Source: Naegleria gruberi (taxonomy: Eukaryota). From it: a DNA stretch of 64,000 nt. The stretch lies in assembly GCA_000004985.1 (NCBI GenBank), contig GG738920.1, one strand, 5' to 3'. The notes under the pieces were generated by a model that saw only the letters and a list, made by a program, of their open reading frames with translations, ran no database searches and was not told where the DNA came from. This document shows positions 2,246 to 59,242 of this stretch, piece after piece (position 1 is the stretch's first letter; every line of letters begins with the position of its first letter). The translations under genes were made by a program, and so were the position numbers.

Positions 2246-4560
2246 TTATTTGAGAATAACAACTCTAGAATTGGTATAGTCAGCAAGGTACAAGTCACCA
2301 GTCTTTTCATCAAAGAAGGAACCAACAACACGACCGAATTGATCCTTACCCAATGAACCATTGTAACTGGCAGTGAAAACACCAGAATCCAAATTGAAGA
2401 AAGTGATTCTATTGTTACCACCATCACAGACAACAACATTCTTAAGAGTTTCATCAATGGCAATACCACGTGGGTTGATAAATTCCATACTTCCTTGGCC
2501 TTCCTTTCCGTAGACTCTCAAAGATACAAATTCGTGATTATCCTTATCAATACCAATAATGTGCATTCTGTGACTGCCATATTCCGAGACAATGAGATTA
2601 TTATTGATGGACAAGTAGATACCTTCTGGTTGATTGAAGAGAATACCGTCCTTATCATCCTTCTTTGAACCAAAGACCTTGAGTGGTTTACCATCAGAGG
2701 CCTTCAAAACCTTAACACGATGATTTTCACCATCACAAACAAAGACAGTGTTACCACCAGTTTGAGCCAATTCTGGGAACATTTGATTGATCTTTCTAGA
2801 GGTACAAACGATAACACCAGCAGGTTCATTGAACAAGGAAATATCGCTACCCTTCTTCTTACCTGAGGTCCAGATTGGTTCAACCTTTTCCTTTTCGTGA
2901 GCTGTCAACAATTGCTTCAAATTGTACTTGTAGACACAGTGATTGTCACAAGTGTAAATCAAAGCATCATTATTACCTTCAAAGTTTGGTTCAATGGCCA
3001 AATATCTTGGATTCTTTGGTGTCTTGTGAGTAGCCTTGTATTCCTTAGTTTTGAGATCAAAGAATTGAATTCTATTGTTACGACTGTCAGAGACAATGAT
3101 AACTCCACAATTGTGTGAAACTTTAACATCCCATGGACCCTTGAACAAGTCATTATCACTACCTTCCTTACCAGTCTTTCCAATAACACCAGCATGTTCA
3201 AATCTCATAGAATATTGTTTGAATGGAGTTGAAGCTTCGGTGACAGTTGGAGTGCTAGAAGCAGATGTAACAGTGGCAGTTGAAGAGTTGGCAGGTTGTT
3301 CGGAAACTGGAGTAGTGGCAGGTGACTTTGAAACTGGAGTTGGAGCTTTAGTCTTTGGATCAGTTTTGATGATTTCACCCAATTGTGCAATTTCACGTTG
3401 AACATATTTGAGCATGGTTTCAACATTGGTGAGTTGAACATCGTGAACTTCTTCCAAAAGTAAATACTTGAAGAAGGTCTTCAAATCTTCGAAAGATTGA
3501 AGTGTTTGTGGAAGTTTACCTAATTTTCTATCCATCATTTCAAAGCCAGACATTTCAGCCAATTTATCAAATTCAGCAATGTAATCGACGGAAATCTTCT
3601 TTAAATCAATAACTCTATTGGTATAGGTAATTTGTTTTTGACAAATTTCATCAATATCGGCATTCAATTGATCTTGTCTATCTTGTAAAGATTGTCTTAA
3701 ACCATCGAAAATAACTTGAACTTCTTCCTTCAATCTAGTTCTTTCCTTTTCAATCAATGTACTTTCTTCTTCTAATTCATTATCATGGGTTTTATGTGAT
3801 TCTTCCCATTCTTTCAATGAATCTCTCAAATTTTGCAAAACCTTTTCCAAATTGGCACGTTCTTCTGGTTCAATCTTTGAAATCATGTTGACTTCTCCGT
3901 GACCTTCACGATGTTCTTCAATAGCACAAGCAGAACAAACCAATTTCTTACAACTTCCACAGAAAGTGTTGATAGGAATGTGGTGAATTAAACACAATGG
4001 GGCAGGACCTCCAAAAGTACCTGTTGTGTTAATTGTTGAGGCAACCATTGGACTGGCAGTTGTTGATGAGCTGATACTTTGACGTGGAGTTGGTGGCAAA
4101 TGTCCTTCATGATTGTGCAAGTGTTGTCCCAATAGAATACCACTTCCTGAGAGTGATTGTGAGGAGGCTCCAATAAAATCGATCACTTGATGGGAAGGTT
4201 CTTTCTTTCTGTGGATAGCAGCATCACGAGCACACAAGAAAAGATTACAGTCTGTGTGTAAAATAGATGAAATTTTAACACATCACACAATGATTGACAT
4301 TTCGACCCATCATCATTGACGTTCAACAATAGCCATTGAAAATCAGCAAAAAATAGAAAATATCGTTAAAATCTTGTACAAATAAATTACTACGTACCAA
4401 TACATTGACTTTTTGCTTCTTGGAAAACATCAACTTCTTCCTTACAGACAAAGCAACATGGTGGAGCTACTTGTTGAGCAGAAAGTGAAGAAATAGACGA
4501 GCTTGAATCAGAGTGGGAAAGTGTGGAAATAGCAACTGGTGGAATGGTGGTTTCACTCAT
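2246..4560 (-). CDS. RING-less TRIM-like protein: B-box1 + B-box2 + coiled coil + about 6 NHL repeats (Brat/TRIM-NHL-like), 2 exons
   Basis: Exon 1 is about 4398..4560, with ATG (MSETTIPP...) at 4558-4560. It carries CCFVCKEEVDVFQEAKSQCI, then a GTACGT...CACAG intron at about 4252..4397 (146 nt, phase 1). Exon 2 is 2246..4251 and continues DCNLFLCARDAAIHRKKEPSH, which completes a B-box1 CxxC..CxxC..C..H..H pattern. A second B-box (CGSCKKLVCSACAIEEHREGHGEV) follows, then a heptad-rich coiled coil, then NHL blades (GKEGQGSMEFINPRGIAID..., NHRVKVL, NNRIQFFD). No C3HC4 RING is found upstream. Confidence 0.65.
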
Positions 4561-5221
4561 TTTTTTAAAGTGGTTTTTTAACGGTTGATGTGTGGCATGT
4601 GAAGAGACATTAAGTCTGACGGGGTTCAGAGAATCATCTTCCGCAATCAGAGTGAATGGTTCGATGTAGCTGACCTTGTGGGAAGGTGAATCGTACGCTT
4701 GATGACAAGTGTAAATTTTTGGTATGATGTTTGACGCTTTCAAAATGATTAGGTAAGGGGACAGTCCTTAATATTCTTTTGACCGTTTTTTTTCTAACAA
4801 TGCAACTACAGTTACCTCTTTGGAATTGATTCAGCATATTAGCATCGCCCAACAAAAGCAATTAGGACTTCATATAAAGAAATATTTTGGTGGCTACATT
4901 GTTTTGAAAAATTATATCAAGATAACTATCTTTCATGATCTTTCCGAGGTGTTGATTTACATGTACTTTGCTAATATATAATATTTAATTATGAATTTTA
5001 ATGATAAATATTTAAATATTATTAATGGTGAAGCCTTTGTTGCTTTATATTGGCCTTAAAAAAAATTCTCAAAACCCAAGAAGTGATTTCCCGCTATTTT
5101 TTTTTACGAACTGTACATGACTTGAGTTTGATAATGTAACCCAGCATAGATTGTTTATCGATGAATGTTTCATTGTTGAAGCAACTATTACAAACTTTAC
5201 AAAGTGAATGAACACAAAAAA

Positions 5222-6265
5222 ATGCAAACAGCACAGCCTTCATCATATCATCTCGATGGAATTAATAATTGTTCAAACAGCTACCTATTCATTAAAGGCT
5301 GTGAAATGCCCTTTTCCGATGGTTGGATAAATATTGATGTTGGATTATCATCACTCCGATTATTTGAATTCAAATCAGAGGAAATATTTGGAAAAATTAA
5401 AAGAATTGGTATTAAAAAGATTGTATGTGGAGATTATCATGCCATCTTTTTATTAAATGATGGAACTGCTTTTGGGTATGGGCAACGAACAGAGGGACAA
5501 TTGATGGTTGATAGAAATTCGAAACAACATGTTGTTGAAATACCACTTTCCAATATTGAGGATGTTTATTGTGGAAGCAGTTTTACATATTGTTTGATTA
5601 GAAAATCAAAATGTGAGTTCAAAATGGTTTCTTTTGGGCAAAATATAAACGAATGTTGCTCACAAAGAAAGGAGGAGGGAGATAGGGATGTAATTCATTG
5701 TAATCTAGGAGATGTTTATTATTGGAATGATGGATACAGTCAACCAATGGAATTTCCTCCTCCAAATGAAATTGTTCTTGATGTGAAATGTGGAGCCGGG
5801 AAAGTTGCCATTCTCACAAAACACTACAAGGATAATCAGAGATTTCTATATTCGATTGGGATTTATGAAAAGAATTTTGGAATTCTACGAAACAAGTATC
5901 TCAGTAGAAGAATACTCTGGAGAACCTACGACAATACGGAATATTTAACGTTGTTCCAGAATTACATAGTATTCCACATGAAGGAGGGACTAAACTATAG
6001 TGATGAAGATATTGAAGAGTATTCCAATAGAATGTTTTCGGAAAGATTCCAGTTGGATTATTTTGGGAAATTATTTGAACTCCCGATATATTCATCTCCA
6101 CCAAGATACCAAATATTGCCAAACGTGAAAATAGAAAAGATTGTAAGTGATTTGGCAGCTTTATCCGCAGAAGGTGATGTTTATGATTTAATGAGCAAGA
6201 GAAAGATTGAGTTTCATGAATTACTTACTGATTTAGATCAGAAAACATTTAAAATGGATAAGTAA
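5222..6265 (+). CDS. RCC1-like repeat protein (hypothetical)
   Basis: The tool ORF starts on GTG at 5204; the first in-frame ATG is 5222 (MQTAQPSS). KKIVCGDYHAIFLLNDGTAFGYGQRTEGQL resembles an RCC1 blade (G.H...L...G.V...G.N..GQLG). It ends in TAA. Family assignment is tentative. Confidence 0.45.
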   Translation: MQTAQPSSYHLDGINNCSNSYLFIKGCEMPFSDGWINIDVGLSSLRLFEFKSEEIFGKIKRIGIKKIVCGDYHAIFLLNDGTAFGYGQRTEGQLMVDRNSKQHVVEIPLSNIEDVYCGSSFTYCLIRKSKCEFKMVSFGQNINECCSQRKEEGDRDVIHCNLGDVYYWNDGYSQPMEFPPPNEIVLDVKCGAGKVAILTKHYKDNQRFLYSIGIYEKNFGILRNKYLSRRILWRTYDNTEYLTLFQNYIVFHMKEGLNYSDEDIEEYSNRMFSERFQLDYFGKLFELPIYSSPPRYQILPNVKIEKIVSDLAALSAEGDVYDLMSKRKIEFHELLTDLDQKTFKMDK

Positions 6266-6966
6266 AGTTTCAATGTAGATATTTCAAGCAATGGAAAGGT
6301 ATTATTTATTCTCGTGAAGAGAGGGTTGTACAGAACAAAAGAGGTTATCAGATTTTGGGAATTAATTAGAAAGGAATCATTTCATGATATATTGTTCAAA
6401 CATAATGATGAAATATCTCAAACTGAATATCCTAAACCTTCAGTTGAAAAAGCACTCCAAAACGAATAGTTCTCAATCGAGTGTAGGATCTATTGGAAAT
6501 TTCTTTTCGAATTCCAAACAAAAAGATTTAGGATATCAGTAAGGTGTGGAGATAACTCAACAACTGCTTAGGTCTTATTTTGATGTGGCCTCAAATAAGC
6601 TTTGTTACATAGCAGGTCAATGCCGAATATGCAGATATTATCAAAAAGGAAGTAGGATGCATTGTTTGATTTGATATTCAATCACTATACATCAATTATT
6701 GAGCTGTATTTTACAATTGCTTATCTCTTCATATTTGTATTGTGCCAGGCAAACTTACAACAAGTTGATGCCGGTTGACTTGCTAACATTTTGTTATCAA
6801 ACCCCATCACATAGTCTCGTTATATACAATCAAAGATTGACGAGAATTATACAAAGAAAGTGATTTCCCGTATGAACTTTTCAATGGCAGATGACATTAT
6901 TGTTAGATAATTACAGTTTCATCTCCAAGGAGGATATCAAAAACTAAAAAACAAACTAAAGATACC

Positions 6967-9393
6967 ATGAAGATAGTACCAGAAGAAAGTATCAACGAGA
7001 ATGAAGAAGAAGTTGAATTGCTTCTTCCTTCTCAAAAGAAAGGCATTTTGAAAGGAATTATGCCACTCAACCTGTTCATTGTCTTTACAATATCCATTTT
7101 AATTTTGAGTGGCAGTTTATTGTTGTGGGGAGCTTCCTATGCATTAACCAAACAAGCAATTACAGAACTTTCCAATAGTTTAATCAGAGTTTCAGGTGAG
7201 AAAATTGTTGGTTTTTTGGATGGAATGCTAAAACCCGTGTCTATGGAAACTAGATCAATGGCCAGAGAATACATGCTCTCTACTCTAGATTTTAATATTA
7301 ATCAGCAACGTGGCTATCTGTATCCAAAGGTTTTGGACTTTGGCAACAATGGAGTTGGTTACTTTTTTGAAAAACCTTACAATGCCAGATATACCTATAC
7401 TTATCCAGTTGGGTCTGCATTCATGAATTATGTCTATCAAGCATTTGGAAGTCCACTGTCAATCACTGACAGAATTAATATCACAACAGCATATCCTGTC
7501 AAGTTGAATTATACAGTCAGCTCAACTCCTTATATTAACAATATTCAACCTTTTTATAACTATACAGTTGAGAGGACTAAAACTTTGGGAGTTGATGGAG
7601 TTTTTGGTGATCCATATGTTACAGGAGGTAAGTATCAACACAATTGATGAAATCAAACTCAATTGTTGACAGGTGTCATGACAATTTATTATTCTCATTT
7701 ACTCTTTAACCCAACACTTTATCAAAAGAATAGAACGAGAGACATGGTGGGTGTTGCAAAAATCAATCTTTCCCTCAAAGCTGTTGCTAATTACCTTTCC
7801 ACAATTAGACTTTTAGGAAGTGGCTATGTTGTGTTGGGAGACAACTCTGGAACCTATCTAGGAGCAAGTTTATTTGTCAATTCTACTACCAATACCATCT
7901 TTGATTTGACAGATCGAAATGCTGGTTTATTACTGAGACAATTCTTTAATATGAATGGAAATTCAACTAATTTTGATAATTCCACTTCCTTCATAATGGT
8001 TGGAGAGCTTGATGAAATTTCTTACATTATTACACCACTCAAGTATAGATTAGAGAATGTGGATTGGAATATTTTCTTTATATTGTACGAACAGGAAGTG
8101 ACAGCTACTTTAATGTTGACAACTTATATTTCGATTGGTGTGACAGCTGGTGTTGTGATTATTGGTTTATTGTCAAGTTTGTTTATAGGGTTGGTTGTTT
8201 CTAGACCTATGAAATTCTTGGAGAAGCAATTCAAGCTTATTAAGGTCTTTGATTTGGATAATGTTGTTTCGAATAAGTCAGTTTTCAGAGAAGTCAACTC
8301 AATTTTCAATAATCTGGACGAAACCATTGATTGGTTGAAGGAAATCAAATCGTTCGTTCCTCCATATATCCTTGAACAAATCCAAAACAGTGAACAAGTT
8401 CAAAAATCAAATACCCAGGAAACAGTTGGAGAAACCAACCGAAAGTCAGTCACTTCATTCCATTCCCAACCTCATTCCAAAGGTGAATCTGGAGCTAGTT
8501 TCCACACAGTTGCTCAATCTTCTTACAAGAATTCAAAGTCACTTTTCAAAATGGGATTAATTGAAAATCCTTCAGCTATCATTACTATTAGAACTGAAGC
8601 TGACAGTCCACATATTTTGGAAGAAGCTTTCAAAGAATTGGTGGTTGCTTTGGGACCTGTCGTGAAGGTTTCTCAAGGAAATTTGCAAATTATTTCATAT
8701 AATCATTTCCAATTGTCATTCACTGCCAATCAACTAGATTCTAAATTGGCTGAAAAAGCTTTTGAAACAGCACTCAAAATTTTCAAAGCTTCTCGATCCA
8801 TTAAGAATCCGATTGATGTAAGAATGGGTGTCTGTGTCAACAAGAGCCACTCTGGAAATTTAGGAACAAATACTTCAAGACATTACATGGTGGTGGGTAA
8901 AGCAGTTGAGCTCTCGGACAAATACTGTGAGTTAGCTTCATTGATGAAGGTGAACATAATTTCAGATTTAGCATCCTTCCAAAAATCAGAGAAATTCATT
9001 GCTAGACCTTTGGACAGGATTGGTTTTGATATGGAAAAAGTTATTGTCTGGGAAGTAATTGATAAGAAAAATGAAGAGAATGATGAATGGTTGTATGAAT
9101 TGGAACGCTCAAAGGAGAATAACAAGTTTAAGGAATACTCCAAAGTATTCGAAATGTTGGAAGAAAAGTTCTGGGAGGTAAATAGAGAAACTGATGATGT
9201 AATTGGAGAATTAGGTAAATCCATTTCAGTTCTGGAAAATTGGTTGAATTCTAATAACAAGGATTCAGGCACAGTTGAGAAATTGTTAAACCATCTCAGA
9301 AAAGTCATGAACAATTCATATGATAATATTTCTCAATTGAAAGATTTTGTTATGAGCTATTCGACAGCTTTTGTCTCTAAGAAATTAATGTAA
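6967..9393 (+). CDS. single-pass receptor-like membrane protein: glycosylated ectodomain + HAMP-like linker + degenerate class III nucleotidyl-cyclase homology domain (2 exons, about 800 aa)
   Basis: ORFs 6967..7647 and 7663..9393 are in the same frame and are joined by a 45-nt GTAAGT...GACAG intron at about 7628..7672. That intron contains an in-frame TGA, so it must be spliced out. The N-terminal signal anchor is LNLFIVFTISILILSGSLLLW. The ectodomain of about 330 aa has many NxS/T sites. A second TM follows (LMLTTYISIGVTAGVVIIGLLSSLFIGLVV), then RPMKFLEKQFKLIKVFDLD, which is HAMP-like. The C-terminal domain carries cyclase-fold hallmarks (RMGVCVNKSHSGNLG...RHYMVVGKAVELSDKY...KVNIIS) but lacks the Asn/Arg catalytic pair and a clear metal-binding Asp. 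Confidence 0.55.
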
Positions 9394-13620: not shown

Positions 13621-13691
13621 TCGGGTGTGGTATAGTGGTAGCATTCCAGACTGTCACTCTGGCGACCCGGGTTCAATTCCCGGCACTCGAG
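13621..13691 (+). tRNA. tRNA-Asp (anticodon GTC)
   Basis: It folds by eye into a cloverleaf. The acceptor stem is TCGGGTG/CACTCGA, with one G-U pair. The D-arm is GTATAGTGGTAGCAT. The anticodon stem-loop is CCAGA-CTGTCAC-TCTGG, giving anticodon GTC. The T-arm is CCGGG-TTCAATT-CCCGG and the discriminator is G. It is identical to the copy at 49293..49363 and very similar to canonical eukaryotic tRNA-Asp. No intron is present. Confidence 0.85.
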
Positions 13692-26600: not shown

Positions 26601-29600
26601 GGAAATATATAGATTTGAAACAACCAACTGGTCTCTTCTTGACAGAAAGTGGTGTTTTATATATTGCTGACTCTGGTAATCATAGAATTAGAAAAGTTGA
26701 AAATGGAACAATCTCAACAGTGATTGGTTCTGGATATTCTTGTTCATCTGCTGGAGCTGCTTCTTGTGATAGCACTGATCCTCTTTTGGTCAAGTTGTTG
26801 GTAAGTTATTCGACACTAGTTCGTATGATAATTTTGGTTAATAGACTCCTGCTGCTGTTTATATCACTAAATCAGGAGATGTCTATGTTGCTGATACAGG
26901 AGTAAGTTATTTGATTGATATATTTCAAAGTAATCCTATCAAATTAACTATTTAGAATAACAAAGTAAGAAAGTTGAGTAATGGAATTTTGAGCACTGTT
27001 GTTGGCACCTCGTTGGATCTTCCAACTGGTTTATTCGTCGATGAGAGCAACAATGATGTTTACATTTCTGATCGTGTAAGTTTTTCAATCTTCCTTTCAA
27101 AAATGTTTACATTTTCAATAATCTTTCAAATTATTTTAATAGACTCGTACTGTTAGAAAAGTTTCTAAAGGATTTTTATCAATCTATGCTGGTACGCTTA
27201 ACAATGCAGTATATTCAATCTCTGGAAATGTTTCTTTCTGCTATCCAACTTCAATTCTTCAAACTAATGATGGAATTCTTGTTGCTGACACTGAAAGTGG
27301 CTTGATCAGATCTGTCAAACTTTCCTGTCCAACTGGATACTATGGATTGAACTGTGAATATTACAACTGTTTTGGAATTAGCAGCTTAAACTCAAATACC
27401 TGCAATGGATTTGGTAATTGTTCAGCACCTGACGTTTGTAGTTGTGACAGCAGTCATGAAGGAAGTCAATGTGAAATTGGAAAGTGTTTTGGAATTTCAA
27501 AAAATAACTCAATGGTTTGCACTGGACATGGGTTATGTCTTTCACTTGATACTTGTTCGTGTAATGGTGATTATTACGGTGAAAAATGTAATTTACCTTA
27601 TTGTTTCTCAATCAGATCAAACGAAACTTCTGTTTGTTCTGGACAAGGCAACTGTGTTGAAAAGGATCAATGCTCATGTAGAAATAATTATTTGGGAGCA
27701 ATGTGTGAAAATGCACCATGTTTTGGAGTTTCTTACAACGCATCTAATGTTTGTTCTGGAAATGGAGAATGTGTTTCTCTCAATAACTGTACTTGCGATG
27801 AAGGTTATTATGGAGATTTATGTAATTTACCAATTTGTTTCTCTATCAAATCCAATGACTCATCAGTTTGTTCTGGACAAGGTGATTGTATTGGAAAGGA
27901 TCAATGCTCATGTAGAAATAACTATTTAGGAGCAATGTGTGAAAATGCACCATGTTTTGGAATTGTTTACAATGCAACAAATGTTTGCAGTGGACATGGA
28001 TTGTGTGTTTCAGGAAGTTGTCAATGTTCAGATAATTATTTTGGATCTAACTGTAGTGTCACCACTTGTTTTGGAACGGCCAGTAATGACAGCTCAGTAT
28101 GTAGTGGTAATGGTATTTGTTCTTCTTTTGATGAATGCAAATGCTCAACTGGATACACTGGAGTTAATTGCAATGTTTCAACTTGTTATGGATTACCTGC
28201 CACTAATGCAAGTGTATGTAGCGGACATGGATTGTGTACTTCTCCGAACCAATGTTCTTGTAATCAAGGTTGGAATGGAACTTATTGTAATGTTACTTCC
28301 TGTTTTGGTATTGTTTCTACAAGTGTTTCCAATGTTTGTAATGGACATGGTTCATGTATAGCTCCAAATGAATGTTCATGCAAACAAGGATATCTTGGTT
28401 CTTCATGTAATGTTACTTTCTGTTATGGAGTTTCTTCCAATGAGTCCAATGTTTGTTCTGGTCACGGAACTTGTGGAGATTTAAATTCTTGTTCCTGCTC
28501 TTCCGATTGGTACGGATCCAAGTGTAACATTACCACTTGTTTCGGTATTAAGGGAGACCAAAATACTGTCTGCAGTGGCCATGGCTCATGTCCATCAACC
28601 AATCAATGTAACTGTCAAGAGAATTATTATGGCACATCATGTTCTGTTCGTTGTGACTCTAATACCTGCAATGGACATGGTAACTGCTCATCAACAGGTC
28701 AGTGTCAATGTTTCTCAGATGTAGAACATGGTTTCTGGACCTCTTCTAATTGTTCGAAATGTGATTCGAATAGGTATGGTGAAAATTGTTGGGTCACTAT
28801 TGGAAATAGTTCAATGGTTACTCCAGATGGAATTGGTCTTTTATTGCAACTTGTTAATCCTAATGCAAATATTAAGAATTTGCAAGTCGATTGTAATATT
28901 TTACTTTCTTCTGAGACTATTAGAAAGTTGGATTCACCAATTTGTAGATGGACTAATTTATCAACAAGTGAATTGACCATTCAAATGGGTCTTGAAAATA
29001 GTATTCAATTAGGAGATTCTTTATATGTCAATACTAATTATTTCAACACAGCCAACTTGAAACCTTCTTACATTCCAATAACTGTCATGAAAAATTCGAA
29101 TCCAACTGTTTTACCAGAAGCTGTCATTTCCACAACTTCCAAATCTTTCAGTAATTGTGATTCAATTGTTATTCAAGGATCTGAAAGTAGAGACAAGAAT
29201 TATAGAGATTTGACTTTCGAATGGCGTTTCGTCAACTCTCCTCTTTCTCCTTCTGCCTTATCTCTCATTACGCTAACCAAACCAACACTTATTTTGGCAG
29301 ATAGTCAACCATCTGGAAATTATATTGTTGAACTCGTTGTCATTTCCAAATTTGGAGCAAGAAGTTTGCCAGTTTCTTATTCATTCAAGAAACTTTCTGC
29401 CAGTATGCCACAAATCAATGCTGAAAGCAATAGTATGGATGTATTTGTCGATAGACTTCCAATAATTGTCAAGAAATATGTTTCGTACAAGTCATGCTTG
29501 GGAGAAATTTTAAAGTCGAATGAATATACAGTGAATTGGACTCAAACCAGTGGACCAACCAATGCCAAATTCGAAACTTTACCTAACGGAGACTTGGCAA

Positions 29601-49292: not shown

Positions 49293-49363
49293 TCGGGTGT
49301 GGTATAGTGGTAGCATTCCAGACTGTCACTCTGGCGACCCGGGTTCAATTCCCGGCACTCGAG
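49293..49363 (+). tRNA. tRNA-Asp (anticodon GTC), identical second copy
   Basis: The 71-nt sequence is identical to 13621..13691. The 5' flank shares atgtaa, and a TTTT run follows 7 nt downstream. Confidence 0.85.
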
Positions 49364-54114: not shown

Positions 54115-55962
54115 ATGGAGCTAGAGGATGAAGTTGTGTGTTTGGAAGCTAAGAATCCATTATCGGTCGCGTCTACTAACAAAATGTGGTATGATAAACT
54201 ACAACTGTTTACACACTTTACAGCACTTTCGAATGAAGATTCGGATTTATTTCTTCAAGCAAGTGTTGAACAATTAGGAAGAATTTTAAGAAAATACTAT
54301 CGTATAGGAATGGAATCATCAAATTCCTTTCCATCTACACCTTCAAATCCAGTCGATGGTCCATCAATCATCGAGCATGTCGTAAATCATTTACAATTCA
54401 AAAATAATTGCACTCTTGTACATTTGGCAGCTCGATATAACAATGTATTCGTTCTGAATTGGATGTTAACATGTTGCTGTGATGATAACTGTAAGCATGG
54501 AGAACATTCCTTAGAATGTCATGCCAGACAAGAGAAATTATGGTCGGCATGTGACAAGAATTTGTCAACACCCTTATTTTATGCAATTTCTACATCAAAA
54601 ACAAGCTCAGAACAAGCAAATACTGATTCAGATGAAAATTCAACACATCCTTCCCATGAATCAATTGTATTTTTACTAAGTCAACCAAGTGTTAAAACCA
54701 AACAGTTAAATCATCACACAGACACTCATGGAAACCTTCCAATTGTGGTAGCACTTCGAAGAAGAGACTATTCTCTAGCAGATTTACTAATCCTCTTTGG
54801 TGCAAAACTCAATATTACTGTTGGATTGGGACTCGGCACATCAGAGTCCATTCTTCACAGTGCATGCAGAGAACGAGATATGAAATTGCTGAAATTCATT
54901 GGACCTCGTTGTAATAAGGTCCTGTTGAAGAGGAATCAGAGAGATGAGAATTGCCTCTTTTCATGTTTGAAAGATTTCAGGTCGAATCAATTCCAGTCAA
55001 GTGCTAGAGCACATTCGAGCATTTCAATGCATTCGGATTTTTTAAGAGAATTTCTTAATATGGCAAGTTCATTGTTTGGAAGTGATACATTTGAGAAAGC
55101 ATTGATTTTGAAGAATTCATTTGGTAGAAATATTCTGTTGGAATCAGTTGCTTTGAATGATCACGAATCGATGAAAGTCATTTGTCAATTTTTATCAAAT
55201 TATCAGCAGCAACCAGATCGATTGAATGTCAGTGCTAGTAATTTATTATCAAACTCAGAATCAAGCTCGTCAGATTCTGATTTTTCACCTTCTACTTTGA
55301 CTAGTTCATTTTCTTCACCAATTTCTAGATCTAAATCTGCAAAAAGCTCAAATTCTTTATTGGAAACTATTGTATTCGATACTGACAAGCAAGGAAATAG
55401 TATTCTTCATATTATAGCAGGTGCAGTTATCAAGTCAATTGAAAATCTTGAGGATTTCATGTGGTTGTTCGATGGAATGAAATGGCTAATGATATGGATG
55501 GAAAATAATTTTAAACCTAGTTCAGGATTGGATTCTCCTCTTTCTCCTTTGATGCATTCGAATGCGCCAATTCAGTTATCTGTATTTACAAAAGCACACA
55601 AGAATTCTGAAGGATTGACAGTTTCAGATTTGATTTCTAATGCAAGGAGAAGTGACAAGACAGAATGGGCAGTCTCAGTAGTTTCAGAAAAGATGAAAGA
55701 AACCATTCGAAAGTGGAAAAAGCTCGACAATCATGACATTATCGGTGAAGATCACAATGATGATGCAGCAAGCGATTCAAGTTTGGTAATTGGAAGAAAA
55801 TCCAATGCTAGATTTTCCAAGTCTTTTCCAGCTGGTGCCTTAACCATGCTTTCTTCTAATCATACTGTTCAGATAACAATTAACAAGTCAGAAAATCAAC
55901 AACCAACTAGAAACAAACTTGGATTCTTGGCCAAGTTAAAACTTGGAAGAAAAAAGAAATAA
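54115..55962 (+). CDS. ankyrin-repeat-like protein (paralog B of 578..2101)
   Basis: 615-aa single-exon ORF with a real ATG at 54115 and a TAA stop. It has LVHLAARYNN and GNLPIVVALRRRDYSLADLLILFGAKLN ankyrin-like motifs. It is collinear with the 578..2101 protein and carries extra Ser-rich insertions. Confidence 0.6.
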   Translation: MELEDEVVCLEAKNPLSVASTNKMWYDKLQLFTHFTALSNEDSDLFLQASVEQLGRILRKYYRIGMESSNSFPSTPSNPVDGPSIIEHVVNHLQFKNNCTLVHLAARYNNVFVLNWMLTCCCDDNCKHGEHSLECHARQEKLWSACDKNLSTPLFYAISTSKTSSEQANTDSDENSTHPSHESIVFLLSQPSVKTKQLNHHTDTHGNLPIVVALRRRDYSLADLLILFGAKLNITVGLGLGTSESILHSACRERDMKLLKFIGPRCNKVLLKRNQRDENCLFSCLKDFRSNQFQSSARAHSSISMHSDFLREFLNMASSLFGSDTFEKALILKNSFGRNILLESVALNDHESMKVICQFLSNYQQQPDRLNVSASNLLSNSESSSSDSDFSPSTLTSSFSSPISRSKSAKSSNSLLETIVFDTDKQGNSILHIIAGAVIKSIENLEDFMWLFDGMKWLMIWMENNFKPSSGLDSPLSPLMHSNAPIQLSVFTKAHKNSEGLTVSDLISNARRSDKTEWAVSVVSEKMKETIRKWKKLDNHDIIGEDHNDDAASDSSLVIGRKSNARFSKSFPAGALTMLSSNHTVQITINKSENQQPTRNKLGFLAKLKLGRKKK

Positions 55963-55994: not shown

Positions 55995-57721
55995 TTATTG
56001 GAAGAGAGAAGAGTGGATCTTTTCATTATTGAGATACCAAACTTGATCTGGAATGTTGGAAGCCATTTCTGCCTTCTTGAGTTCCATATATTTTCTTCCT
56101 TGTTCGGTAGATAATAATTCAATCATGCCCTTCATGTATGATAATTCAATTTGAGCATCTGTTGATTTGATATAATTTTGAACTTCAATGTTAGCTTTGG
56201 TTGTTTCATAAGTGACTTGAGAATCAATCTTGGCTTCTTCAACCTTTTCAACTTGCAAGTTTTCATTTTCAATACCGATGAGTTCTTCACGTAATTTTTG
56301 AATTTCAGCTTCTGCCTTAAGTTGTTCCTTTTGAGCTTCTCTGGAGGCTTCAGTTTCCATCTTGTTACAGACAATTCGCATATTAGATTTGATAGATTGG
56401 TTCAAGAGATCATTGATTTGGTTATTAACAGGTGAGATTGATTTAACGTCGATTTCAGAGACTAATAATTTGATTTCATCAAAATAAATACCAAGAACGG
56501 ACTTTTCTTCGTTTCCAACATTGACTTTGGATTCATTGAAAAGGTGCTTTCGAATTAATGATACAGTTCCGCTGTGGAATTCTTCGAATGTGAAAAGAGC
56601 AGCAAGTTCTCTAACTCTTGACATGAGGGTAGCACAAATATATCCAATAAAGTCAAGCATTCTGAACATGACATGTGAATCTGATTCATCAACCAAAAAT
56701 TCCCACTTGTAAGTTAACAAAATGCTGAGTTCAGCATTGTCCTTTGTACTGACACGGAAAGAATCAGAAACGAAATCTGGACCTCTCATAATTTTGGCGG
56801 CCTTAATTTGTTTGATTTGTTTTGGCTTACCAGCAGACAACCAGAGACACTTAACGTGTTCCTCAGGTGAGAGAATGTATGAGGTTGGTCCATTGATAAT
56901 TCTTTCATTTCTTTCAGCATCCAAAACACAAACTACTTGTTTCTTTTCAAGACGAATAACAGTAGCCATATAATCCGAGCTAGTAGGTAATCCAAGAGCA
57001 GTCTTTTCCATATCAGTGTATTGCTTATAGTACAATTCTTCAGTTGCTTTCAAAATATAACATGCAGGTCCCTTAACTAACTTCTTTTCGGAAGTTTCAG
57101 TATCTTGAACATAAATACCTTCATTTTCATTGATCATGATGGCATTAACAGTTTTCATAACTTCAGTATCCTTATCTGGAATAAATCTGGCTGGTCCTTT
57201 AATTTGATAAACATCACCGGCCTAATTTAACAATAAAATAAATTGCTCAAATGATTACTAAGAATACAAACCTTCAAATCAACTTCCTTTCCATCAATTT
57301 CTATCTTCTTATCAACCAAACATCTCAATCTCAAAGCTTGGTTTGGTTTCAAAATATGAACATCAGTAATAGCTTCAATGACTTCATTTCTATGCAATGC
57401 CAAAGCCTTTGGTCCTTCAATAACACGACGTTCACCCATCAAGTTTCTTTCTTCCTCATAATCATATGGATTTTTAATAATAACATATTGTCCTTCCTAT
57501 TATCAGTGTAATTATTTAACAACAGCGATGATAATACAATGATGATGATCAACATGTTGTATTGTTGTGTGGTCACTTACCTTGATGATTGACAAATTTT
57601 GTGTATTAATGATGGCTTCATTGGCTCTCAAAGCAATACGTTTTGGACCAATTTCAATCTTGACAACACCCGAATCATTATCAAGAATGTGTACATAAGT
57701 ATTTGGATTTAGAACGTTCAT
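55995..57721 (-). CDS. MVP: major vault protein (MVP) homologue, short form, 3 exons, about 530 aa
   Basis: Exon 1 is 57581..57721 (ATG at 57719-57721). MNVLNPNTYVHILDNDSGVVKIEIGPKRIALRANEAIIN matches the MVP N-terminus [24 protein letters not shown]. Intron 1 is GTAAGT...AATAG at 57497..57580. Exon 2 is 57272..57496 and carries an MVP-repeat-like ERRVIEGPKALAL...NQALRLR. Intron 2 is GTTTGT...AATTAG at 57222..57271. Exon 3 is 55995..57221. ENEGIYVQD and the shoulder segment KCLWLSAGKPKQIKQIKAAKIMRGPDFVSDSFRVSTKDNAELSILLTYKWEF match human MVP ENEGIYVQD...[35 protein letters not shown]. The C-terminal coiled coil is short. Confidence 0.75.
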
Positions 57722-58155
57722 GATGATGATAATAGTACTTTGTTGTATGATACAAATTTAAAAAAGAATATATAACTGTGTTAGTGGCTATTGTCTTCCT
57801 GTTTTTTTCTCTAATGAAAAAACATTAATACTTGCAAGTGGCTTTTGATCAAAAAAAGTTCATAACAAGAAGAGATGTTCCGTGTGTTGGTTGTGTGGCA
57901 CAAATCTTCTTCACAGAGATGAACATATGAAAATATTTTTTTGGTCGGTACCTTTTTAGTACCTTACACAAAGATACAACAATGAACTTGTAAAGTTTTG
58001 CAAAACATGAAAGAGATCAAAATCATTTTGTTTTGGTTGAACAACATAGTAAGGTACCTACCAACACATTGAACTCTGTAAATTGATTGAATAATTGGGT
58101 GAGTATTACAATATGAGTTTACAAAGAGATATTTACTAATAATAACAAAAATAAA

Positions 58156-59242
58156 TTAAAGGGTGTCAAGAGCAACTCGTTCTTGTGTGAAACAGTCAAC
58201 TGGAGTGATAATGATTGGAGGAAGAAGTGATTTGATGGAAGAGTTAGAGCCTGCTTGGAAATCTTGTTGAGCAAGGTCTAATTGTTTGAGTTCTCGAAGA
58301 GAAGAACCTCTAATGAGATAGTCCTCTTTAGTGAGAGGTAGGGAATTTTGTTTTCTATAGTTGATGTAAGAGGTGAGAGCTTCCACTGATTTTACAAGTA
58401 ATTCCCTTCTCGAATCATACAAGACATATTCGTAATAATAACTAATTCCAAGAAGTTTGAGAGTATTTGGATCATTTGGTACATGTTTCAAATACGTTTC
58501 CAAATCCTTAATGCATCTATCGAGTCTCTTCAATTGATAATAGCACAATCCTCTATTGAAATAGCACTCGTAAAAATCTGGATGATTGGCTATTGCTTTA
58601 GAATAATCCTTGATAGCACTTGAATAATTGCTATCAAAGTAAAATAAATTTCCTCTCCTATAGAAAACCTCTGGATGGAATGGATTAATTTCCTTAGCTT
58701 TTTGCAAATCCTGATATGAATTGGTAATCACTCCTCTATAGATGAAGGACCATAGAATTTGCTTATCAATGGTAAATTCCTTGGTTGGTGGTTTTTTAGA
58801 AATTGCAATCACTTCCTTTCCCTTCTCTATAACTTTTGTGAAAAATTCTGTAGCTTCCTTGTACTTTTTCTGGTTGTATCCATCCACAGCAACATGAAAT
58901 ATCTTGGTTGTGTACAAGTGTTGATTGGAAAATACCTTCTCATGAATATCCGATAACAATCCATCCACCTTTTGTCCGTATCTCCGATATTGATTGCTAT
59001 TAATCCAACAATGATTAATAGTATTTACATTACATTTTACACTTTCTAATTGTGATAGACTATTCCGATGTTGTTGAATGGTGGAGTAATGATATGTACA
59101 ATGTAAATGATGATGATGATGAAGATTTTCCTTCAGGTTGTTGTTGTCCTATCAGTGTCCTATTATTATTCTTGTTGATGATAAAAGAACCAATGAAGTC
59201 TTTTATCCGAGGAGTAACAGCCGAAGAACAATGTTTTTGCAT
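58156..59242 (-). CDS. TPR-repeat protein; the tool ORF 58156..58968 lacks an ATG, and a probable 5' exon lies at 59100..59242
   Basis: TPR motifs are present, e.g. AIKDYSKAIANHPDFYECYFNRGLCYYQLKRLDRCIKDLETYLKHVPNDPN. The tool start at 58968 is GTG. The frame stays open upstream to about 59150 without an ATG. A candidate exon 1 is MQKHCSS...SSSSFT, with ATG at 59240-59242. It would join through a GTACAT...TTAATAG intron at about 58997..59099 (103 nt, phase 2) to NQYRRYGQKVDGLLSDIHEK... The 5' model is low confidence. Confidence 0.45.

Follow-up and report, generated by a model that had tools for sequence, protein, structure and literature searches.

A short, intact major vault protein gene of Naegleria gruberi with the five-repeat layout of prokaryotic vault proteins

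The 64,000-nucleotide stretch of contig GG738920.1 from the Naegleria gruberi assembly GCA_000004985.1 (the window, to which coordinates refer unless another locus is named) is AT-rich, with about 33-36% G+C, and carries on its minus strand a gene coding for a short major vault protein (MVP) homologue. The gene runs from an ATG at 57721 to a TAA ending at 55995, with three exons separated by two phase 0 introns, and its coding sequence of 1593 nt gives a protein of 530 amino acids (aa) with a molecular mass of 60.6 kDa and an isoelectric point of 5.4. An exact-sequence look-up showed that this product has, from the first residue to the last, the sequence of N. gruberi XP_002670013.1 / EFC37269.1 / UniProt D2W0Z9, and the public gene model is the same as that of the initial annotation of the window. 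The parts of the gene are the following:

55995..57721, minus strand: whole gene from ATG to TAA, short major vault protein (NAEGRDRAFT_81983 / XP_002670013.1 / D2W0Z9)
57581..57721, minus strand: exon 1, codons 1-47, 141 nt, its junction backed by the N. lovaniensis orthologue, which is intronless there
57497..57580, minus strand: intron 1, 84 nt, GTAAGT...AG, phase 0
57272..57496, minus strand: exon 2, codons 48-122, 225 nt
57222..57271, minus strand: intron 2, 50 nt, GTTTGT...AG, phase 0, read-through of which gives a stop after 14 codons
55995..57221, minus strand: exon 3, codons 123-530 plus TAA, 1227 nt

The orthologue from Naegleria lovaniensis (P0001, at 4001-5695 of locus L001, on a 521-kb contig) is also exactly 530 aa long and is 80% identical. 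Its frame is uninterrupted across both N. gruberi junctions (...LSIIK|EGQY... and ...DLK|AGDVYQI...), and because N. lovaniensis reads through both sites without an intron, both splices are validated, including the GTTTGT donor that the initial annotation had ascribed to intron 2. Together with the identical public protein, this read-through establishes the three-exon gene proposed there for positions 55995-57721. The N. lovaniensis gene has a single intron of 102 nt after codon 217, whereas those of N. gruberi lie after codons 47 and 122, which indicates intron turnover within the genus. The genes flanking the MVP locus also differ between the N. gruberi window and L001.

Comparison of the two Naegleria genes gave a nonsynonymous substitution rate (dN) of 0.17-0.18 and a synonymous rate (dS) above 1, which is saturated, with a dN/dS ratio (omega) of about 0.07 by the NG86 method to 0.16 by LWL85. 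Every domain is 75-85% identical between the two species. About 25 relatives of 506-552 aa share the layout, among them proteins of N. lovaniensis, Acrasis kona and Pharyngomonas kirbyi (Heterolobosea) and of Stygiella incarcerata and Andalucia godoyi (Jakobida); a layout of about 520-550 aa is kept across these five genera, several of the sequences coming from transcriptome assemblies. Strong purifying selection acts on this intact and spliced gene, and a pseudogene or decaying gene was rejected on the dN/dS values and the conservation of length.

We investigated also the presence of further coding sequence at the locus. A tblastn search of the 64-kb window with 122 MVP relatives, short and full-length, gave no match with E < 0.1 outside the gene, and the best match in the 434-bp upstream spacer (57722..58155), where the initial annotation had likewise seen no candidate exons, had an E-value of 1.9. 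The N terminus of the protein aligns by phmmer to residue ~7-11 of mammalian MVP, at its start, so that the part missing in comparison with animal MVP is internal. With introns of only 84 and 50 nt, hidden exons are ruled out.

The assignment to the MVP family does not depend on one method. In Pfam scans the shoulder domain MVP_shoulder (PF11978) was matched at aa 269-388 over its whole profile (positions 1-118 of 118) with an E-value of 4.6e-35 and 120.6 bits for a cut-off of 25. From the Vault repeat set (PF01505, PF17795, PF17796, PF17794), Vault_3 was found at aa 217-263 (E 1.7e-15, 57.3 bits, cut-off 28.8) and Vault at aa 94-138 (E 6.9e-10, 39.2 bits, cut-off 27); Vault_4 at aa 149-190 remained below threshold (18.8 bits, cut-off 22.9) and Vault_2 was not detected in the protein. 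A phmmer search against all solved chains retrieved MVP only, with an E-value of 2e-67. An AlphaFold2 model built from a 62-sequence alignment, with a mean predicted local distance difference test score (pLDDT) of 88.5, matched by Foldseek the human, rabbit and rat vault chains (E 7e-38 to 3e-31, TM ~0.6 on the query), the next matches being the SPFH cage proteins HflK/C, prohibitin, erlin, flotillin and stomatin with E-values of 6e-8 to 1e-4. The Naegleria protein is thus an MVP homologue, with a similarity far beyond chance, as expected from the compact MVP homologue of about 530 aa described in the initial annotation.

To type the repeats, separate hidden Markov models (HMMs) were made from 37 full-length MVPs for each of R1-R9 and likewise for shoulder, cap helix and cap ring. 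The boundaries used for these HMMs are reportedly the domains of the rat crystal structure of Tanaka et al. from 2009. The following domains were assigned:

57590..57721, minus strand: repeat 1, aa 1-44, R1 type (R1 HMM 36.0 bits at aa 4-40; beta strands in the model)
57362..57589, minus strand: repeat 2, aa 45-92, R6 type, spanning intron 1 (R6 HMM 12.5 bits; 17-40 bits in relatives)
57144..57361, minus strand: repeat 3, aa 93-148, generic Vault type R3/R4/R7, spanning intron 2 (R3 37.5, R7 25.2 and R4 23.9 bits; Pfam Vault)
56940..57143, minus strand: repeat 4, aa 149-216, R8 type with a short helix at 192-198 (R8 HMM 38.2 bits; weak Vault_4)
56775..56939, minus strand: repeat 5, aa 217-271, R9 type (R9 HMM 35.4 bits; Vault_3)
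56424..56774, minus strand: shoulder, aa 272-388, SPFH-like fold (full MVP_shoulder profile; SPFH cages in Foldseek)
56112..56423, minus strand: cap helix, aa 389-492, predicted as a single helix of 104 residues (~15.6 nm)
55995..56111, minus strand: C-terminal element, aa 493-530 and stop (helix 495-510 with G-x-x-Y-L/M-x-L, then a W-Y-L..(D/N)..L tail)

The strand pattern of the predicted structure delimits the same five beta domains as the per-repeat HMMs, so the count of about 2-3 MVP repeats given initially was too low. In canonical vaults R1 serves as the waist domain, linking one half to the other; its motif in Naegleria, YVHILDNDSG..EIGPK, matches the canonical segment ending in ..EVGPK, and the domain is 82% identical between the two Naegleria species. 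A MAFFT alignment placed residues 1-38 of the query on MVP 6-44 and residues 39-202 on MVP 269-430, which leaves no equivalent of R2-R5 in the Naegleria protein. The order R1-R2-R3-R8-R9, suggested by a phmmer alignment of query residues 5-160 to MVP 11-176, was considered and dropped, repeat 2 being R6-like and not R2-like: no R2 match above 3 bits was obtained in the query, and among the four short MVPs examined the sole one was of 9.6 bits, in P0025. As repeat 2 is R6-like and repeat 3 generic, we prefer the order R1-R6-R7-R8-R9, with a call of R3 versus R7 that is ambiguous in Naegleria. The architecture consists of R1-, R6- and R7-type repeats, R8, R9, a complete shoulder, a cap helix of 104 residues and a short conserved C-terminal motif; what is missing in comparison with canonical MVP is the R2-R5 block and, from the stretch that joins the shoulder to the C-terminal motif, about 59 residues.

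The shortening of the C-terminal helix, noted initially beside the presence of the shoulder, could be measured: the rat MVP cap helix has about 156 residues (23.4 nm), compared with 104 residues (~15.6 nm) in Naegleria. Whole-protein MAFFT and hhalign alignments, which showed just two 11-residue gaps in this region, were rejected as a measure of helix length because they misplaced the C-terminal motif. The C-terminal tail is predicted to be disordered, with a pLDDT below 50 for residues 517-530, yet it is conserved. We tentatively regard the C-terminal element as equivalent to the cap-ring segment AGPEMQ...LITDGSTPINLF of canonical MVP. In a 19-residue Kyte-Doolittle scan the protein showed no transmembrane or strongly hydrophobic segment, and no N-terminal membrane anchor, the highest mean (1.16) lying inside the shoulder; no match to Pfam Band_7 (PF01145) was obtained in it at E-values up to 1.

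The protein itself is already known, since the window product is identical to D2W0Z9, published in 2013; the literature containing it comprises PMC3595041, PMC3762200 and PMC12547018. Daly, Sutherland-Smith and Penny (Genome Biol Evol 2013, PMC3595041) described D2W0Z9 (530 residues) and a second N. gruberi paralogue, D2V5B9 (559 residues, 35% identical), as MVP-like proteins that fall short of rat MVP by more than 300 residues and have 'fewer repeats domains', modelled them as MVP folds and docked them laterally in silico. These authors left undecided whether repeats had been gained in other lineages or lost in Naegleria, and in a follow-up paper they considered the Naegleria sequences short but complete. 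Heterolobosea and Jakobida were later reported to have short MVP forms only, with no full-length gene, TEP1 being undetected in both, and Euglenozoa, the third discoban group, to have canonical long MVPs (J Biol Chem 2025, PMC12547018). Whether a second, full-length MVP exists elsewhere in the genome, a point raised by the initial annotation, is thereby answered in print: Naegleria has none, just the short paralogue D2V5B9, whose gene is located elsewhere, the window holding a single MVP gene. Our results agree with these published descriptions of the same protein in its fewer repeats, its MVP fold and its apparently complete gene. What is added here is the number and types of the repeats, the exact shortening of the helix, the validation of the splices, the test for selection and the connection with prokaryotic five-repeat MVPs.

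Compared with canonical MVP (rat, human and Dictyostelium; PDB 4V60, 4HL8 and 9BW5), the Naegleria protein has R1, R8, R9, the shoulder and the cap-helix fold in common, with 27-31% identity over the shared parts. Canonical MVP has nine repeats whereas Naegleria has five, the absent R2-R5 block including R3-R5, the repeats that form the docking surface for human PARP4 (PMC12280208). The distance from the end of the shoulder to the C-terminal motif is about 169 residues in the canonical proteins versus 110 in Naegleria, and the long C-terminal tail of canonical MVP is absent. The absence of R3-R5 agrees with the failure to detect TEP1 in Heterolobosea and Jakobida and with the finding of the vPARP clade only in animals and Amoebozoa (PMC2964712).

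We looked also for proteins of the same layout outside Discoba. Among the closer matches was P0029, an MVP homologue of 574 aa (positions 6001-7725 of locus L003; GCA_053534855.1, contig JAIYKI010000001.1), whose archaeal contig carries an archaeal-type L18e-L13-S9 operon, overlapping genes, a PIN/ribbon-helix-helix pair and an integrase, and which is collinear with the five-repeat short MVPs. A protein search seeded with P0029 gave about 50 relatives of 480-650 aa, the family being mainly of ~540-630 aa, with named members from Nanoarchaeota, Woesearchaeota, Promethearchaeota, Odinarchaeota, Uhrbacteria and Eremiobacterota, as well as myxobacterial proteins of ~755 aa. The per-repeat HMMs identified five repeats, of the Naegleria types, in proteins of Promethearchaeota, Woesearchaeota, Uhrbacteria and Eremiobacterota, and the order R1-, R6-, R7-type, R8, R9 and shoulder is the same in these four groups, in the query, in Acrasis and in Andalucia. 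The Odinarchaeota protein P0170 (479 aa) has four repeats, R1, R6, R8 and R9, and the myxobacterial proteins P0176-P0186 (for example of Corallococcus and Vitiosangium) have seven, R1, R2, R3/7, R6, R7, R8 and R9, giving a series of four repeats in Odinarchaeota, five in the short family, seven in myxobacteria and nine in canonical MVP. An MVP of five repeats has been published for Asgard archaea (Nat Microbiol 2026, PMC12962969), in a paper that makes no mention of Naegleria or Discoba, and our literature searches gave no paper making the link between the discoban and the archaeal five-repeat proteins.

The likeness extends to the helix and the C terminus. In each of the 17 Discoba proteins, the query among them, the C-terminal GxxYLxL follows D[VI]xxIxP, the motif at the end of the shoulder, at a spacing of exactly 110 residues; in the prokaryotic short group the median is also 110 (108-110 in at least six members, 108-150 overall), and in canonical MVP the corresponding AGPEMQ motif stands ~169 residues downstream of the shoulder-end motif. 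The short MVPs of Asgard archaea, DPANN archaea and the candidate phyla radiation (CPR) are collinear with the Naegleria protein from end to end, at 33-35% identity, and share with it the C terminus G-x-x-Y-L-x-L ... (D/S)-x-x-x-L-P-L. Global hhalign comparison of the Discoba and prokaryotic families aligned query residues 1-530 to residues 6-524 of Promethearchaeota P0162 with a score of 960 and an E-value of 3e-175, with small indels only; against the canonical family the score was 639 and 217 N-terminal residues were skipped. The two sets are nevertheless distinct. The Naegleria gene has spliceosomal introns and lies in an AT-rich nuclear contig, unlike the prokaryotic five-repeat MVP genes; the DPANN proteins have an N-terminal extension of ~30 residues and an insertion in R8, both absent in Naegleria, and the Naegleria shoulder has an insertion of ~10 residues absent from the prokaryotic proteins.

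In neighbour-joining trees with a simple distance correction, the split between the Discoba and prokaryotic short proteins on one side and the myxobacterial and canonical proteins on the other had a bootstrap of 100% on 510 columns and of 99% on the R8-R9-shoulder columns alone. Discoba were monophyletic in 88% of the replicates; they grouped with the canonical clade in 0 of 200 and in 1 of 100. In the neighbour-joining tree, full-length nine-repeat bacterial MVPs annotated 'colicin uptake protein' (P0031, P0037, P0042, P0050 and P0056) fell inside the canonical eukaryotic clade; this set includes Parabeggiatoa and two cyanobacteria, Tumidithrix and Oxynema, and its identity to sequences grouped as eukaryotic reaches 87%. 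Some of the sequences so grouped, from the Joint Genome Institute (JGI), may themselves be bacterial. The position of the bacterial proteins in the tree fits a transfer between eukaryotes and these bacteria.

We propose, and consider probable, that the product of this gene is a functional short MVP belonging to the five-repeat class. With a slighter preference, we favour the view that the short MVPs of Heterolobosea and Jakobida are eukaryotic members of an ancient five-repeat lineage of Asgard and DPANN archaea, by vertical inheritance from the archaeon ancestral to eukaryotes or by an old transfer; the Naegleria protein would then descend from this prokaryote-type lineage and not from a recent truncation of the nine-repeat eukaryotic protein. 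On this view, as the repeat series suggests, two-repeat modules would have been inserted to give the nine-repeat vaults.

Several points weigh against this proposal. The mean distances are 1.25 between Discoba and the prokaryotic short proteins, 1.25 between Discoba and the myxobacterial proteins and 1.38 between Discoba and the canonical ones, and as both the Discoba and the prokaryotic short groups have long branches, their grouping could be a product of long-branch attraction. The canonical long MVPs of Euglenozoa mean that, for a vertical origin of the five-repeat form, early eukaryotes must have had two types of MVP, unless a gene was transferred. The C-terminal motif matches the cap ring weakly, with an E-value of 0.04 when the C termini alone were compared by hhalign, and a hydrophobic-periodicity test of the cap helix gave no clean heptad signal, with no clean peak at 3.5-3.6 residues. 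The literature that we found on the Naegleria protein is in silico only, with no reports of a particle, of expression or of interactions; the published homodecamer model of the Asgard protein is of low confidence, with an interface predicted TM score (ipTM) of 0.525. The balance is tipped towards common descent because the repeat set, the helix spacing and the C-terminal motif are independent of the tree.

The alternative that deserves most attention, although we hold it to be rather unlikely, is a secondary truncation, in which an ancestor of Heterolobosea and Jakobida with a nine-repeat MVP lost R2-R5 and ~59 residues of the cap helix and then evolved fast, its likeness to the archaeal five-repeat proteins being due to convergence and long-branch attraction. 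Loss of the repeat region is one of the two options raised by Daly et al. (PMC3595041), and the canonical MVPs of Euglenozoa, which also belong to Discoba, speak for it, as do the long branches of the Discoba short proteins and their about equal distance from the prokaryotic short and the myxobacterial groups. Repeat 3 of Naegleria, moreover, scores best against R3 and not R7, so that the exact boundaries of a deletion are ambiguous. A truncation would however need two independent deletions hitting the same repeat set and giving the same 110-residue spacing as in prokaryotes. It has also to face the profile-profile alignment, which runs end to end with the prokaryotic family and scores 50% above the canonical one, and the near absence of replicates joining Discoba to the canonical proteins, even on the R8-R9-shoulder columns, where the alignment is unambiguous.

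If the protein is a functional five-repeat MVP, its assembly may be pictured by analogy. Copies would pack side by side through the repeats, the shoulder and the cap helix, as in MVP and SPFH proteins, the shoulders and cap helices forming a closed dome and the repeats a barrel wall under it, and two halves may join through the conserved R1 domain. A canonical vault has 39 copies per half and is a 78-mer; with four fewer repeats and a cap helix shorter by one third, a particle of the Naegleria protein would be markedly shorter than the canonical vault. Unless its cap stays open, such a 'mini-vault' would probably be narrower as well, each half having fewer than 39 subunits. The most likely product appears to be a smaller cage, vault-like but devoid of the repeats that dock PARP4, and with R3-R5 absent any cargo would have to be held differently.

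The second short paralogue, D2V5B9, may take part in building the cage. Two short-MVP genes were found head to head, 400-600 bp apart, in two unrelated assemblies of probable heteroloboseans, from Logan SRR15116022 and from a 320-kb contig of the JGI metagenome 3300062347:

locus L002, 746-2599, minus strand, and 3001-4650, plus strand: head-to-head pair of short-MVP genes
locus L004, 893-2398, minus strand, and 3001-4530, plus strand: head-to-head pair of short-MVP genes

The members of each pair probably share a promoter region, and their arrangement hints at co-expressed hetero-oligomers, as in Dictyostelium and trypanosomes.

An MVP-like protein with a non-vault assembly, for example an open dome or ring seated on a membrane or another structure like the SPFH cages, or a scaffold of small oligomers, seems to us improbable. 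It would account for the SPFH cages being the best structural matches after MVP, for the weak Band_7 Pfam matches of the prokaryotic relatives and for the vault partners TEP1 and vPARP being undetected in the lineage; and in Dictyostelium a subpopulation of canonical vaults is reported to be membrane-associated in situ (PMC13100048). In the SPFH/Band-7 cages, as in Naegleria, an SPFH-fold shoulder is followed by a long helix, which in the SPFH families closes the dome. The Naegleria protein differs from them in lacking both a membrane anchor and a Band_7 match, and in the five beta-repeat domains that it carries N-terminal to its SPFH-like domain. The hydropathy profile described above gives a membrane-seated form no support, and R1, which in canonical vaults makes the half-to-half contact, is retained and conserved.

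A degenerating copy, as entertained in the initial annotation, or a mis-annotated fragment of a longer gene is scarcely credible, since its sole support is the short length relative to animal MVP, whereas the frame is intact with canonical GT-AG introns, omega is low, the 530-aa length is exact in N. lovaniensis and its class is kept across Heterolobosea and Jakobida in five genera, the N terminus aligns with that of MVP, and the window and the upstream spacer hold no other MVP-like coding sequence. The Naegleria protein is a minimal MVP, neither degenerate nor missing exons.

Other features of the window were recorded beside the MVP gene. An open reading frame (ORF) of 615 aa at 54115-55962 on the plus strand converges on the MVP gene, the two stop codons being 32 bp apart, and an ORF of at least 270 aa at 58156-58968 on the minus strand lies upstream on the MVP strand, 434 bp from the MVP start. 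An Rfam scan of the window gave no match to a vault RNA family, whose linkage to the MVP gene is not expected anyway, and only two tRNAs. These are identical copies of tRNA-Asp (GTC) at 13621-13691 and 49293-49363 on the plus strand, 35.7 kb apart, with about 22 bp of similar upstream flank and unrelated wider flanks. Self-BLAST showed a direct repeat of ~207 bp at an offset of 234 bp, 82.6% identical, at 27571-28011.

Vaults still have no known function, and Asgard-archaeal, cyanobacterial and eukaryotic sources are debated for their origin. N. gruberi is a culturable, free-living eukaryote whose MVP has the same five-repeat, short-cap layout as that of uncultured Asgard and DPANN archaea. 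It makes it possible to ask in the laboratory if five-repeat MVPs assemble into closed cages, what size and symmetry these have, and what role a vault has without PARP4, TEP1 and the PARP4-docking repeats. The shared layout also bears on the question of whether nine repeats are ancestral for eukaryotic vaults or arose by a later expansion. If the short MVPs of Heterolobosea and Jakobida do belong to the archaeal five-repeat lineage, N. gruberi would be the first tractable organism for isolating and imaging an ancestral-type 'mini-vault'.

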